This document shows positions 4,125 to 22,704 of a stretch of 32,000 nucleotides of DNA, piece after piece (the stretch's first letter is position 1; each line of letters starts with the position of its first letter). The stretch is from Candidatus Saccharimonadota bacterium (GTDB taxonomy: Bacteria > Patescibacteriota > Gracilibacteria > BD1-5 > UBA6164): NCBI GenBank assembly GCA_965227835.1, contig OZ245768.1, positions 390,001 to 422,000 on the forward strand. The letters are read 5' to 3'. The position numbers were made by a program, and so were the translations under genes. The notes beneath the pieces are model-generated. The model was not told the DNA's origin, made no database searches, and was given only the letters and a program-made list of their open reading frames with translations.

Positions 4125-5777
4125 TTAGCTTTCTTCCTTATTACTTTTCATAATAGGGAAAAGTATTACATCTCTAAGATTTTCTTGCCCAGTTAGCAAA
4201 GAAACTATTCTATCTATACCCATACCCCAACCTGATTGACAAGGCATACCATATTCCATTGCTAGAACAAAATCATCATCTCATGAAGTTGCTTCTTCGT
4301 CTCATCTTTCTATTGCTTCAGACTGTTCGCTAAATTTTTCTTTTTGAATTTTTGGGTCGACTAATTCTGAGTAAGCTTTTAATACCTCCCATCAATTTAA
4401 TACAAGCTGAAACTGCTCTACTATATTTTCATTATCATCTGATTGTCTTGCTAAGGGTTGCATTGTTACAGGGTAATTATAAACAAAAGCTGGACCTACT
4501 ATATTTGGTCTTAAAACCTTTTTATATAAATAATCTATCATTGTAGAAAGTCCTTGTTTATCTATTCACTCCCAAGTAAATCAAGCTTTTTTTATATCAC
4601 TTCTTAATTTCTTTTCATCTTCTATACCATATTTAGAAATATCAATACCTGATTTATCTTTTACCCCTTCTATATAATCTATTCTATCAAAAGGAGTCTT
4701 AAAATTAACTAATTTTTCCTCTCAATTTTTATCTTTTATTTTCAATTCTCTTTTTATATTCATTTTATCAAATAGATAATCAAACATTTTTTCTGTAAAC
4801 TTCATATTATCTTCAAAATTCCACCAAGCAGCATAATGTTCAACCACACTAAACTCTTGAACATGAGAAGGATCAGATCATTCATTTCTAAAATTTTTTC
4901 ATATTTCAAAAACTCTTTCAAACCTTCAAACAGTTGCCTTTTTTAGGGCTATCTCTGGAGCTATACGAAGAAAAAAATCTTCATCAAAATCGTTGTGATG
5001 TGTTACAAAAGGCTGAGCCGCAGCTCAGCTTGCAGCATTTCCCAAGATAGGGGTTTCTATTTCTACAAAACTATTTTCCCAGTAAAATTCTCTTATTGTT
5101 TTTATAAATTTACTTCTAAACATAAATATATCAAAAGAATCTTTATTTGTTATCAAATCAAGATATCTTTGTCTATATATTATTTCTCTATCTTGAAGTC
5201 AATGAAATTTTTCAGGTAAAGGTCTTATTGCTTTTGATAATATTTGAAATTCTTTTACAAATACTGTCAGTTCTCCGTGATTTGTTAAAAATAAATCTCA
5301 TATAATACCAATATAGTCTCATATTTGGCAAAATTTCTCAGCTATTTTAAATGCAGATTTTGTTTCTCATCATATTTCTATTTCAGATACTAAATTTCAT
5401 TTTTTTTCTTCCTTTTTTATTTCATCGTAATTATTTGAGTTTTCTAATCTATTCTCATATTTTGAATTTCAAGTGTTAAATACAATTTTATCTTTAGCAA
5501 AACAAATTTGTATTTCTCAGCTTTGGTCTCTTATTTTTCAAAATAAAAGTTTTCACATCCCTCTGCTTGATATAATTCTTCCAGCTAATTTATATTCACC
5601 TTTTGCTCAGTTTTCCATTAATTCTTCTGCTTTTTTTTTCTTTTGTTCTAAACTACTTGTAACTATATATTCTATGTCTTGCTTTCATGAAAACTTGTTT
5701 GCATAGCAAATAATTCAAGCCTCTTTCATTAATTTTATTTTATTTTGTCTTTCTAAGCTTTCTTTTGAGTATTGCAT
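4125..5777 (-). CDS. lysS: lysine--tRNA ligase (class II)
   Basis: 551 codons checked triplet by triplet. Conserved motifs: [51 protein letters not shown], and C-terminal [40 protein letters not shown]. Several conserved Gly are TGA. TAA at 4125-4127. The only in-frame ATG before the upstream stop is 5775-5777. Confidence 0.95.
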
Positions 5778-14351: not shown

Positions 14352-16229
14352 TTACAATTCTTTTTTTCTATACTCATCCAAAATTCTTACTTTAAAATCT
14401 TCTAGCTTTTCTACAGTTTGTTCTTTAGTCTTATAATTCCTTACAGATACACTTCAGTTTTTTTCTTCTTGCTCTCAAATAACCAATATATAATTAATAT
14501 GCATTTTTTCCGCATTTCTAATTTTCTTGTTCAATGATTCAGTGCTTAAATCTGATGTTACCCTTATTCAATCCTTTTTAAAATCTTCTTCTATTTTTTT
14601 AGAATACTCATCAAGTTTAGATAACACAGGTATGATTATAACTTGTCTTGGAGCCAACCAAAGAGGAAATGTTCCTGCAAAATGTTCTATCAAAACTCAC
14701 ATTCATCTTTCAAGTGATCAAAAAATAACTCTATGTATTACAACCGGTCTTTCTTTTTCTCATTTTTCGTTATTAAAACTTAAATCAAATCTTACAGGCA
14801 AATTGAAATCACATTGTATAGTTGCTAGTTGCCATTGTCTTCAAATAGCATCTTTGAACATAAAATCAAGTTTTGGTCAGTAAAAAGCAGCTTCTCATTC
14901 CACCCTTTCATATGGTAAATTATTTTCCTTACTTGCCTCTTCCAATTCTTTTTCTGATTTTTCCCAAATATCATTATCTCATATATATTTTGATTTATCA
15001 CTTCATCTTACAGAAAGAGATACCCAATAATCTTCTGTCATTCAAACAGTAGTATAAAACTCCTTAATTATATCAGTTATTGATTTAATTTCTTGTTTTA
15101 GTTGAGATACTCTACAAAACAAATGACCATCATCTTGAGTTATAGATCTCACTCTTGTCAATCATCAAAGTTGTCATGATTTCTCATCTCTATAAACTGT
15201 TGCTGGTTCAAAATATCTAACAGGCATATCTCTATAAGAAAATTGATTATCTGCAAATATCTGCATATGGTGAGGACAATTCATAGGTTTCATAAAAAAT
15301 TCTTCTTCCTTTCATTTTACTTTAAAAAGTTCATCTCCAAATTTAGAAGCATGACCTGATTTTTCATATAAATCTTTTTTTGCCATATGAGGTGTCCATA
15401 CCCTTTGATAACCTTTTTTAGAATGTATTTCCCATAAATAATCTTCTATTTCTTTTCTCATAATCATTCAAGCTGGTTGTATTAGAGGCAATCAAGCTCA
15501 AACTAGATTTGAAATACTAAATAGTTTTAATTTTTGTCCCAGTATTCTATGATCTCTTTTTTTTGCTTCTTCAAGCATATTTAAATGCTTATCTAGTTCT
15601 TCTTTTGTATCAAAAGCATAAGCATAAATTCTAGTTAACTGCTTATTTTTTTCATCTCAAAGCCAATAAGCTCATGCTATTCTTACTAGTTTAAATGAGT
15701 TTGAATCTATTTCTTTTGTATTTTCTACATGAGGTCAGCTACACATATCTATAAACTTTAGATTTTTGATTTGATCTCAATCAAGCTCACTAAATTCTTC
15801 AAAATTTTTACTTGTTAGATAATCTTGAACTTTACCATAATACTGGTTTGTTTTTCATTTTGATGTATTTATATAAAACCCAACTTTACCAGATTCTATC
15901 TTTTCAGCATTTTTGAAGTCTCAGCTTTCAAATTTATCTACAAGCTCAATTTTAAATCATTCTCACATATTTTTTAATATATCTCTTGCTTCATCAAAAT
16001 TTACTTCAAATTTTTTAAAATCTTGATTAGCACTAACTATTTTTTTCATTGATTTTTCTATTGTTTTCAAATCTTTTTCTCAAAATTCATCTTCTCAAAA
16101 ATCAAAGTCATAAAAAAATCAATCAGAAGTATCAGGTCAAGTAGCTATTTTACAATTTGGGAAATTATTTTTTACAGCTTGAGCCATAATGTGGGCCAAA
16201 GAATGTCTCTTTGTCGATATATTAGTCAT
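14352..16229 (-). CDS. thrS: threonine--tRNA ligase (no N-terminal TGS domain)
   Basis: 626 codons checked triplet by triplet. It starts [44 protein letters not shown], which is the HxxxH editing-domain motif and GP..DGFYYDF with Gly encoded by TGA. Class II core motifs include [10 protein letters not shown] and [16 protein letters not shown] at 14352-14354. Confidence 0.9.
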
Positions 16230-19331: not shown

Positions 19332-20535
19332 GGGTCTGTTGCAAATTAGATTTTAGCTATTAAAAAGAGAAAAAAGAGATATAATTAGATAGTAATTATA
19401 TTCTAAGAAAATACCTATGTGAGAATCAAATCAAATAAGTTTTGTTATCCTAAACGAGCTAATTCCAGAAAATCATCAATATCGTAAATTTAAGAAATTG
19501 TGGAACTTTGATTGAGTAAATAAAATACTAAAAAATATAGATCTATGAAAAACTCATGTATGATATTGAGTAAAAAAATTATTTCTATGTTTACTAATCC
19601 AGTTTATGGAAGATCTATCAGATAGAGAGTTAGAGAAATATCTTGCAGAAAATTTAGCTGGTAAATGGTTTTGCTGATTTAAATTAACAGATAAAACTCC
19701 AGATTATAGTATATTCTCAAGAGCAAGAAAAAAGATATGAACAAATGAACTATCAAAGATATTTGAAGATTTAAAAAATCAATTATCAAATAAGGGGTAT
19801 ATGAGTGAAGTGTTTACATTTGTAGATGCTTCTCATTTAGTTACTAAAGCTAATTTATGGGAAGAAAGAGATAAATGAATAAAAGAATGATATGAAAAAA
19901 TGAATAATGAAACTCTTCCAAAAGTTGCTAATGATAAGGAAGCTAAAATTTGATCTAAGTGAAAAAATAAATTTTGGTATGGTTATAAAAAACACGCTAG
20001 TGTTGATATGCAATCTTGAATGATAAACAAGATAGCTATAACTCAAGCTAATGTAACAGATGCAAAGTGAATGAAACATGTATTACCAAATTCATGAGCA
20101 GTATATGCTGATAAGTGATATTGTATTTGACCAGCTATATTATCATCAAAAAAGAAGTGATTACATTTATGTGCAATAAAGAAGAATAATATGAAAGAGA
20201 AGGATAAGGATAAAGATAGATTTTATTCTAAACTTAGATCTCCTTATGAGAGAGTATTTTCAAAAATGAATCATAGAGTGAGATATAAATCTGTAGTAAA
20301 AAACCAGTTTACTGCATTTATGGAAGCTATATCTTTTAATCTCAAAAGATTGGTTGTATTAGAGGAAATCCCAATAGCTTAGATTAGTTTCCTTAGGTGG
20401 ATTTTGTCTAAAATCCTAAATTATATATAAAAATGGCTATAATTTAACAAAAAATAGATGAATTTTATAAATCTTTCATCTATTTAGTACTTTTCTTAAT
20501 TAAAACTCTTTTTAAAATCAAAACGCAACAGACCC
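19332..20535 (+). mobile_element. IS5-family insertion sequence (about 1.2 kb) with terminal inverted repeats and a 5-bp flanking direct repeat
   Basis: Left end gggtctgttgc at 19332-19342 and right end gcaacagaccc at 20525-20535 form a perfect 11-bp IR. AATAT lies immediately outside both ends (19327-19331 and 20536-20540). It contains one transposase ORF. Confidence 0.8.
19417..20382 (+). CDS. IS5-family DDE transposase (DUF772-type N-terminus)
   Basis: 322 codons translated. LIPENHQYRKF is typical of the InsH/DUF772 N-terminus. FVDASH, AVYADKGY and RSPYERVFSKM match the D, D, E regions of the IS5/IS4 superfamily. I count 17 in-frame TGA, for example in GYGVKK and ADKGY. TAG at 20380-20382. 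Confidence 0.85.
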
Positions 20536-20649
20536 AATATGATAGAATCTATTAACTGTATCTATATATAGGCACTAATATTTATAAACCCATACTTTTA
20601 AATAATTTTTTGCATTAATAAAAAAAGACATATAATAATTTTGTTAAAT

Positions 20650-20856
20650 GAAAAGCATTTGAATCTTGCAGACACAAGATGAGGCTCGAGGAAGAAAGTT
20701 TCTGCCTAAAAATAGAAATTATTAGAACCTTGCGGAGGTGAAATCCTTCGTCAAAAAAAATAAAATTAAGTAAAAGCTTTTTGGTGGCACCTTTCGTAAA
20801 TATTCAAAAATACGAACCAAAAGCACACATCTATATTATGTGTGTTTTTATTTTTT
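20650..20856 (+). promoter_or_regulatory. T-box riboswitch leader controlling aspS
   Basis: The antiterminator is canonical. Helix A1 is gcuuuu(u)gg (20776-20784) paired with ccaaaagc (20817-20824). The 7-nt bulge UGGCACC (20785-20791) matches the T-box UGGNACC. Helix A2 is uucgua/uacgaa (20793-20798 / 20811-20816). The competing terminator aaaagcacacau (20819-20830) / auguguguuuuu (20838-20849) plus a U-run reuses the A1 3' strand. The element lies 13 nt upstream of the aspS ATG. A candidate GAC-A specifier is at 20671-20674. Confidence 0.75.
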
Positions 20857-20868
20857 AATATTAAAAAA

Positions 20869-22704
20869 ATGTTTAGAACTCATAAATGCAACGAACTATC
20901 CTCAAAAAATATTTGAGAAGAAGTTACTTTATCTGGTTGGGTAAGCAACAGAAGAGATCATTGATGAATTATTTTTATAGATCTTAGAGATAGATATTGA
21001 TTAACTCAAATAGTATTTGATCCTAAAGATAATAAAAAATCTTGGGAAACAGCAGATTCTTTTAGGAGTGAATATGTTATAAAAGCTTGTTGAAAAGTAA
21101 GATCAAGACCAGAATGACAAGCTAATCCTAATATGCAAACAGGGGATATAGAAGTAATCATAGAAGGTAATACAGAGATTTTAAGTGTATCAAAAACTCC
21201 ACCTTTTGAAGTAGATGATTTTTGAGAATTAGCAAATGAGGAAGTAAGGTACAAATACAGATATATAGATTTAAGAAGACCTAAAGCTTTAGAAAATATT
21301 AAATTTAGATCAAACTTTCTTACATATACAAGAAACTGGTTCGTATCTAGAGATTTTTTAGACATTCAAACACCTATTTTCACAGCATCTTCTCCGGAAT
21401 GAGCAAGAGATTTTATAATTCCTTCTAGACTACATCCAGGTAAATTTTATGCGTTACCTCAAGCTCCTCAGCAATATAAACAGCTTTTGATGGTATGATG
21501 AGTAGATAAATATTTTCAAATAGCACCTTGTTTTAGAGATGAAGATCCTAGAGCTGATAGACATGCTTGTGAGTTTTATCAAATAGATTGTGAGATGAGT
21601 TTTGTAAAACAAGAAGATATATTTGAAGTAGTTGAAAATTATCTAACTGATGTAGTTTGAGAACTATCAGATAAAAAAATAACCTCTAAATCTATTTTTT
21701 CTCAAAAAGAAGAAACTAGTAAACTTAGATTTTCTCAAATTTCATATTTAGAATCTATGGAATTTTTTGGTACAGATAAACCAGATTTGAGATATGATAT
21801 GAAACTTATAGACGTAGCTAATATATTCTCTAGATCACAAAATGAGATTTTTAGCTCCATAGCTTCTGATTCAAAAAATAATAGAATAAAAGCTATAAAA
21901 GTAACAAATTGAGATAATTTATTTTCCAAAACTCAAATGAAAAATTTTGAGAAATATGTTTCTCAATTTTGAGCTAAAGGTCTTTGATATTTTCAAATGA
22001 AGCAAGAAGGTTTGAAATGACCTTTAAATAAATTTTTCAGTGATAAAGATTTGTCAGATATAATAGAGATTACTGATTTGAAAGTTTGAGATGTAGTTTT
22101 TTTTGGAGCTTGAGATAAAAATACAGTACTTGATTATATGTGAAAATTTAGAGTATATTTATCTAAGTTAATTGATGAAATTATGTGATGAGAATTTATT
22201 CCAAAAGATGAATTAGCCTTTTGTTGGATTACTGATTTTCCTATGTTTGAGATAAGTGAAATTAATTGAAAGATAGACTTTGGTCATAATCCCTTTTCTA
22301 TGCCAAAATGATGAATAAAAGCTTTTGAAAAAGAAAATTTGCTAGAAGTAGAATCAGATCAATATGATTTATCTTGTAATGGTTATGAGGTATTATCAGG
22401 TTCTATTAGAAATCATGATTTTAAATCTTTGGTTAAAGCTTTTGAAAAAATATGAAGAAATGAAGAAGAAGTAAAAGAAAAATTTGGGGCTATGTATGAA
22501 GCTCTTCAATATTGAGTTCCTCCTCATGGAGGTTTTGCTATAGGGATGGATAGGCTTATTATGATTTTGAAAGATGAGGATAATATTAGAGAAATATATG
22601 CCTTTCCTAAATCTGGTAGAGCTCAGGATTTGATGATTAATGCTCCTTCTTTTGTTGAGGATATTCAACTGAAAGAATTGAATATAAATGTTTTGAAGAA
22701 GTAG
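20869..22704 (+). CDS. aspS: aspartate--tRNA ligase (bacterial type)
   Basis: 612 codons checked. The N-terminus [52 protein letters not shown] has TGA at the conserved Gly positions. Other motifs: [33 protein letters not shown] and [17 protein letters not shown] at 22702-22704. Confidence 0.95.

Follow-up and report, generated by a model that had tools for sequence, protein, structure and literature searches.

What kind of switch stands before aspS in this CPR genome: a T-box that reads tRNA, as its sequence suggests, or something that the standard T-box model is right to pass over? The window, by which we mean the whole 32,000-nt stretch analysed here (G000:C1:390001-422000), comes from a closed 1.49-Mb genome with 25.5% G+C that uses genetic code 25. 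Within it, aspS runs from 20869 to 22704 on the + strand, with 25 TGA codons read as Gly. It is preceded by a candidate T-box leader of ~205 nt that spans 20652-20856 (+) from its 5' box to its U-tract. An earlier sequence-only reading had called this leader a canonical, textbook T-box. A T-box-type leader is indeed there, with every listed element in its place. It is not canonical: it has no match to the T-box model RF00230, no distal platform, a specifier in an apical loop, no Stem III and an extra unpaired U. With high confidence, we read it as a minimal member of the T-box family that attenuates transcription in response to tRNA and is tuned to tRNA-Asp, with aspS as the regulated gene.

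The 5' half of the leader is a compact series of hairpins; all parts given here lie on the + strand. A promoter-like site, TTTGCA-16 nt-TATAAT, sits at 20609..20636 (pattern scan, 10/12 matches), and relatives' leaders have similar promoter hexamers at equal spacing from the leader. From this site, we predict that the transcript starts ~7-10 nt upstream of the leader. The 5' box AAAGCAUUUGA (20652..20662) contributes an AGC that pairs with GCU at 20684-20686, then a bulged AUUU, then GA. Ultrashort Stem I (20663..20680) is a 6-bp helix, AUCUUG/CAAGAU, capped by the 6-nt apical loop CAGACA. This loop holds the specifier GAC at 20671-20673, followed by a conserved A at 20674. GAGGCU (20681..20686) completes the GA motif and its closing stem as their 3' strand. 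Together they give the K-turn-like layout AGC-AUUU-GA ... GA-(G)GCU, with an atypical bulge of 4 nt and a 3' GA that is AA in many relatives. In the window, 18 nt (20663-20680) separate the two GA-motif strands, and the distal platform is absent.

Stem II (20687..20732) consists of a lower helix, CGAGG/CCUUG, and an upper helix, GUUUCU/AGAAAU. Between them lies a purine-rich, S-turn-like internal loop with AAGAAA on one side and UAUUAGAA opposite. The GA motif and this internal loop may fold as a K-turn and an S-turn, respectively. The Stem IIA hairpin, CGGAGG-UGAAAU-CCUUCG (20733..20753), runs into an F-box-like UUCGUCA. An A-rich single-stranded linker follows (20754..20775, or 20751-20775 if the overlap with the IIA segment is included); it carries the conserved motif AAAUUAAGUA at 20763-20772 and retains the purine motif AAUUAAG.

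Two mutually exclusive helices make up the 3' half. The antiterminator (20776..20824) comprises helix A1, in which GCUUUUUGG (20776-20784) pairs with CCAAAAGC (20817-20824) around one bulged U; the T-box bulge UGGCACC (20785-20791); and helix A2, in which UUCGUA (20793-20798) pairs with UACGAA (20811-20816). This is the arrangement that the sequence-only reading had described, save for U20792, which has no partner and makes the bulge effectively 8 nt. A2 of the window opens with U-A, not with the G-U wobble described as the aminoacyl sensor. The intrinsic terminator (20819..20856) is a 12-bp stem of AAAAGCACACAU (20819-20830) and AUGUGUGUUUUU (20838-20849), followed by the U-tract UUUUUAUUUUUU. 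This tract ends at 20856, 13 nt before the ATG of aspS at 20869, as had been counted earlier. The terminator stem takes 6 nt of the A1 3' strand, just the reuse that had been claimed, and a pattern scan picked it up where shuffled sequences gave an expectation of 0.0.

Fold energies place the resting state of this switch at OFF. A2 plus the terminator folds with -14.7 kcal/mol (z = -5.1) versus -8.2 kcal/mol for the antiterminator alone, so termination is the more stable default. A terminator that overlaps the A1 3' strand by ~6 nt recurs in all 90 leaders of the family described below, 87 found by script and the other 3 by eye; the script missed these 3 because of long A2 inserts. The AAAGC of the 5' box (20652-20662) recurs at the end of the A1 3' strand (20817-20824). 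In the minimum-free-energy fold of the whole leader, the 5'-box AAAGC pairs with the A1 5' strand (20776-20784), and RNAalifold, run on a MAFFT alignment, also drew a long-range 5'-box pairing, there with the A1 3' strand. Judged from these models, pairing of the 5' box with A1 may be a third pairing that stabilises the OFF state, or a coincidence.

Standard annotation passes this leader by. RF00230 has no match in the window at its gathering score (93 bits), and at E<=10 it has none in 20450-20950 or in the whole genome. The sequence-only reading would have taken the lack of a significant RF00230 match as a refutation, which proved too strict a yardstick. The weak matches (E>0.5) that SL2, ohsC and further families show in 20450-20950 are due to chance. 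By a rough base-composition estimate, UGGNACC occurs by chance in a few copies per 32-kb window; the motif alone therefore means little, and context and conservation count.

Conservation is readily seen among relatives. We located aspS in 40 of them and fetched 30 loci, 16 of which carry the same leader upstream of aspS. The sequence GGUGGCACCUU is invariant in 15 of these 16 leaders, and L013 differs with GGUGGCAGCUU. A covariance model built from the 16 aspS leaders, R1 (148 positions, 30 pairs), gives the leader in the window 115.7 bits (E = 4e-30). In the rest of the genome, R1 has exactly one further strong match, at G000:C1:810737-810914 (102 bits). The genes called lysS (a class II D/K/N-type synthetase, 4125-5777, -) and thrS (14352-16229, -) in the same window are real, and neither has an RF00230 or R1 match, which agrees with the earlier remark that they lack such a leader.

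R1 describes a widespread family that is homologous to known T-boxes. It matches 136 of 151 genomes of the order (~90%), usually twice per genome, bearing out the suggestion that the element is widespread in the lineage; in samples of the class and of the phylum, it matches 43 of 151 and 20 of 151 genomes, respectively. With its threshold relaxed, RF00230 aligned five distant R1 members end to end with 29-54 bits (L183, E = 6e-9; L184, 1e-7; L189, 5e-6; L174, 1e-5; L173, 0.01), which ties the family to T-boxes by homology. RF00230 places the Stem II and K-turn regions of distant members on its own Stem II and K-turn. In the two printed alignments, those of L183 and L184, 72-74 distal Stem I positions of the model are deleted, and the K-turn, Stem II, IIA/F-box, Stem III and T-box sequence stand in register. 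Of the 151 genomes in the phylum sample, 50 have an RF00230 match at E<=1e-3, but only 5 have one that passes the model's own threshold. Canonical T-boxes exist in some CPR lineages, and reduced ones escape annotation. A literature search, which was not exhaustive, for T-boxes together with CPR, Patescibacteria, Gracilibacteria or Saccharibacteria found no paper.

The structure is maintained by compensatory change across the family. We fetched 80 further loci and aligned 90 leaders to R1; MAFFT had misaligned the longer Stem I hairpins, and the leaders were realigned to the covariance model instead. In this alignment, which is fitted to R1, compensatory changes appear in 25 of 30 pairs, and the share of paired cells is 97.5%, versus at most 49% in slid controls. 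The covariation score, from the same fitted alignment, is 0.58 versus 0.07-0.12 for slid partners. On the unfitted MAFFT alignment, RNAalifold found double compensatory changes in 16 of 28 pairs. A GGU/ACC mini-hairpin that RNAalifold drew inside the bulge was rejected: its columns are invariant and so show no covariation, and it would destroy the conserved bulge.

Individual elements differ in how they are held constant. At the base of Stem I, a G-C and a C-G pair are invariant in 90 of 90 leaders, and an A-U pair shows compensatory change. The Stem I helix measures 4-6 bp across the family, with all 4 modelled pairs covarying, and in 79 of 90 leaders its loop has 7 nt arranged as N-N-codon-A-N. 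Compensatory changes occur in 8 of 8 modelled pairs of Stem II, whose internal-loop purines are invariant; 4 of 5 pairs covary in Stem IIA and 5 of 5 in A2. Linkers are 24-46 nt long (median 26) and contain the motif A[A/U]NRAG in all 90 leaders. Up to the end of the antiterminator, leaders measure 138-236 nt, with a median of 151. Stem III is absent in 88 of 90: a linker hairpin occurs in 2 of 90 only, and the window's A-rich linker cannot form one. A IIA/B pseudoknot, sought in the AT-rich leader of the window, cannot be drawn there; its pairing is visible only in the GC-richer relatives L023 and L030. The ACC part of the bulge is variable, reading UGGUAAC in 13 ileS leaders, including this genome's, with single occurrences of UGGUAUU, UGGUAAU and, in L013, UGGCAGC.

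Codon, bulge base and downstream synthetase match within this one genome. Bulge base C20788 fits the discriminator of tRNA-Asp(GUC), which has G73 and an encoded CCA, as the sequence-only reading had predicted from that base. The second R1 match (L032:1501-1678, equal to G000:C1:810737-810914, +) is an ileS leader with the loop CU-AUC-A, the bulge UGGUAAC and a terminator, and the genome's tRNA-Ile(GAU) has A73 and an encoded CCA. Loop triplet, bulge base and synthetase thus change together in one genome, as the T-box mechanism requires. The earlier nomination of GAC-A (20671-20674) as specifier stands, since the triplet tracks the gene across leaders; the internal loop expected to hold it does not, and the triplet lies in a terminal loop. 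After the second leader come a PemK/MazF-like ORF (L032:1735-2154) and then ileS, and by its position this toxin gene appears to be under isoleucine-tRNA control.

The rule that couples codon to bulge base has 0 exceptions in 90 leaders. All 51 leaders with the bulge UGGU have an AUC loop, and 35 of them have IleRS <=2.8 kb downstream; in 2 of the 51, the residue after AUC is G or C, not A. The 39 leaders with UGGC carry AAC (34) or GAC (5), with AspRS downstream of 38 of them. An ORF of 411-415 aa follows an AUC/UGGU leader in four genomes (L085:1538-2770 (-), L111, L113, L114). The ORF of L085 is an ilvA-like threonine dehydratase (Pfam PALP + Thr_dehydrat_C), and the other three cluster with it by blastp. 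AUC leaders that lack a nearby ileS and stand before ilvA also fit isoleucine control, and in some of these reduced genomes the predicted Ile regulon takes in a biosynthetic gene. Outside the order, the combination of AUC and UGGU is seen ahead of genes whose products have IleRS-like N-termini, that of GUC and UGGU ahead of valS-like genes, and that of UCC and UGGC ahead of an ORF resembling a histidine phosphatase. Three leaders outside the order have AAC or GAC loops, with UGGC in the two whose bulge was read.

Among aspS leaders, the codon toggles between Asp and Asn. GAC is found in G000 (the genome of the window), G003, G019, G018 and G077, and AAC in congeners of G000 and G019. A gene for asnS (TIGR00457) was not found above the NCBIfam cut-off in ten genomes (G000 and nine relatives, of both GAC and AAC types), and gatB is present in 5 of 5 genomes tested, G000 among them. 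With asnS missing and gatB present, AspRS is probably non-discriminating. On this gene content, the host's AspRS probably also charges tRNA-Asn, and the order as a whole probably uses the indirect route to Asn-tRNA. An AspRS that charges tRNA-Asn too would explain AAC in the same loop position in relatives. Because tRNA-Asn of this genome has G73, as does tRNA-Asp, the bulge C can remain fixed even as A and G alternate at the first codon position.

A related arrangement is reported from another bacterium. Saad et al. in 2012 reportedly described an Asn-specific T-box in Clostridium acetobutylicum that controls the ND-AspRS/GatCAB route from a canonical long-Stem-I leader. Both systems join a T-box that reads an Asn codon to an indirect Asn-tRNA pathway with a non-discriminating AspRS. 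Unlike in C. acetobutylicum, the leaders here present the Asn/Asp codon in a minimal Stem I, and relatives differ in which of the two codons they carry. This toggle, in which the bulge base does not change, is a clean natural experiment on the specificity of T-boxes and is linked to the indirect synthesis of Asn-tRNA.

Specificity has switched repeatedly between Ile and Asx. A tree of the 90 leaders, built with the loop and bulge columns left out, requires 9 changes of the Ile/Asx label, and well-supported branches force at least 5 of them; the AU test rejects a grouping of all Asx leaders in one clade (p = 0.013). Codon and bulge base switch together in 5 of 5 independent pairs on supported branches and in 9 of 9 on all branches; a sign test on the 5 independent pairs gives p = 0.06, the best that five pairs can reach. 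The window's aspS leader groups with the ileS leader of its own genome (99/88 support, 78% identity) and apart from its aspS counterpart in the congener G001. Two histories fit these sequences: repeated copying with re-targeting, or exchange between the two leaders of a genome with selection holding codon and bulge base. Under either history, codon and bulge base are functionally coupled. A DDE transposase ORF (DUF772 + DDE_Tnp_1; window 19417-20382, +) stops ~230 nt before the leader's promoter. By its kinship to the genome's own ileS leader, the window's aspS leader may have been replaced or converted here.

These elements suggest how the leader would work. By default, the nascent leader would form the terminator (20819-20856), and RNA polymerase would halt 13 nt before aspS. 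A build-up of uncharged tRNA-Asp would be the trigger, through two contacts with the leader. Its anticodon GUC would pair with GAC (20671-20673) in the apical loop of Stem I, braced by the docked purine loop of Stem II, and its free 3' end, G73-C-C-A, would pair with UGGC (20785-20788) of the bulge. This would stabilise the otherwise weak A1/A2 and keep AAAAGC (20819-24) from the terminator, with the result that transcription would continue into aspS. For charged tRNA, the second contact would be impossible. What the analysis establishes is the covarying structure, the mutually exclusive helices, the agreement of loop codon, bulge base and downstream synthetase, and the homology to T-box leaders; tRNA binding and charge sensing are predicted.

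Several features count against a T-box reading: the RF00230 miss, the lack of a distal Stem I, the lack of Stem III, the extra bulge U, an A2 that starts with U-A and the lack of a IIA/B pseudoknot. The leader might be the relic of a T-box that has lost its tRNA sensing and now serves as a terminator, either constitutive or under some other control (by protein or NTP), with codon and bulge kept by descent only. Such a relic would suit the failure of RF00230 on this leader and the missing distal Stem I and Stem III, both necessary in studied T-boxes (PMC7583486). Yet loop triplet and bulge base are invariant or co-vary over at least five independent switches while neighbouring loop positions drift, and all helices are maintained through compensatory changes. 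The only codon change tolerated in aspS leaders, moreover, is A<->G at the first position, which puts Asn for Asp, both with G73 tRNAs. We therefore regard a relic as very improbable.

Scant credence also goes to a main action on translation or mRNA stability, as in the short-Stem-I T-boxes of Actinobacteria, with the hairpin and U-tract incidental. The alternative helix of the window is a 12-bp stem followed by UUUUUAUUUUUU and covers neither the start codon nor any Shine-Dalgarno-like sequence, and a U-run hairpin overlaps A1 in 90 of 90 leaders despite the varying distance and identity of the first gene. These observations outweigh the facts that an ultrashort Stem I has so far been described for translational T-boxes (PMC7583486) and that the ATG lies a mere 13 nt past the U-tract. 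A different question is which tRNA is read. That the effective ligand here is tRNA-Asn, or both Asx tRNAs, and not tRNA-Asp alone is unlikely: the window's GAC perfectly matches the anticodon GUC of tRNA-Asp, whereas the GUU of tRNA-Asn needs a G-U wobble at the first codon position. The idea draws on the AAC of 34 of 39 related aspS leaders, on an AspRS that probably charges tRNA-Asn in a genome without asnS and with gatB, and on the G73 shared by the two tRNAs.

As a transcription attenuator tuned to tRNA-Asp, the leader shares its logic with class I transcriptional T-boxes (RF00230; Bacillus subtilis tyrS, glyQS). Like them, it has an A1/UGGN-ACC/A2 antiterminator that competes with an intrinsic terminator, a bulge N that fits the tRNA discriminator, and a specifier codon plus A that fits the regulated synthetase. 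The GA motif at the base of Stem I, the purine-rich internal loop of Stem II, and the IIA hairpin with its F-box-like CGUCA are shared as well. Unlike class I, Stem I here is 4-6 bp and thus has no AG bulge, distal loop or tRNA-elbow platform, and the specifier sits in the apical loop, whereas class I holds it in an internal loop. Stem III is absent (88/90), the bulge is effectively 8 nt, no G-U pair stands at the base of A2, and the score lies far under the Rfam threshold.

In outline, as judged from literature descriptions (PMC7583486), the leader also resembles the ultrashort Stem I (class II) ileS T-boxes of Actinobacteria, with an apical specifier, no elbow platform and Stem II directly next. 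Those T-boxes were described by Sherwood et al. 2015, and structures exist for the Mycobacterium and Nocardia ileS leaders (summarised in PMC7583486); apical specifiers belong to the short Stem I's of such translational actinobacterial T-boxes (PMC7583486). Ile (AUC) is the commonest specificity in the CPR family too, within a range of Asp, Asn, Ile, Val and Ser. Unlike class II, the leaders here end in a Rho-independent terminator, whereas actinobacterial leaders sequester the Shine-Dalgarno sequence and control translation. Stem III has been lost here, whereas actinobacterial leaders keep it, often enlarged.

We lean, if only slightly, towards a broader view: a previously undescribed, CPR-wide class of terminator-type T-boxes that works without the elbow platform (in this order also without Stem III) and has been redirected between Ile and Asx on at least five occasions through joint changes in codon and bulge base. 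The long Stem I platform is held to be 'generally require[d]' or essential in transcriptional T-boxes, for capturing tRNA fast enough, and Stem III to be indispensable for the discriminator and integral to the charge sensor (PMC7583486). A terminator without either module in ~90% of the sampled genomes of the order stands against these stated requirements (PMC7583486). If the broader view is true, tRNA capture and 3'-end sensing would proceed by other means: a Stem II dock and an A-rich linker tracking the minor groove, a slow or paused polymerase, or a protein helper. At ~150 nt to the antiterminator, these leaders would offer a natural minimal scaffold for studying what T-boxes truly require.

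Such regulators go unseen in CPR genomes under standard annotation, which comprises RF00230 and the short-Stem-I (class II) model of TBDB, searched in Actinobacteria only (PMC7778990). In the CPR genomes here, our two models, RF00230 and R1, detected no T-box-type leaders besides those of aspS and ileS.

The genes that follow these leaders are themselves varied. In many genomes (L067, L069, L078, L010, L105), small unrelated genes stand between leader and synthetase: NUDIX, MazG, GNAT+DUF4440, GIY-YIG/DUF4357, ITPase-like, and a recurrent 77-aa ORF without a Pfam match. Extra genes seem to land in the interval between T-box and aaRS. Outside the window, ARAGORN lists tRNA-Val(UAC) and two tRNA-like genes within 300 nt (G000:C1:256908-257207, -). 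The two tRNA-like genes have 8-nt anticodon loops, listed as 'ggaa' and 'tttg', and they and the tRNA-Val(UAC) beside them all end in CCAU, not CCA.
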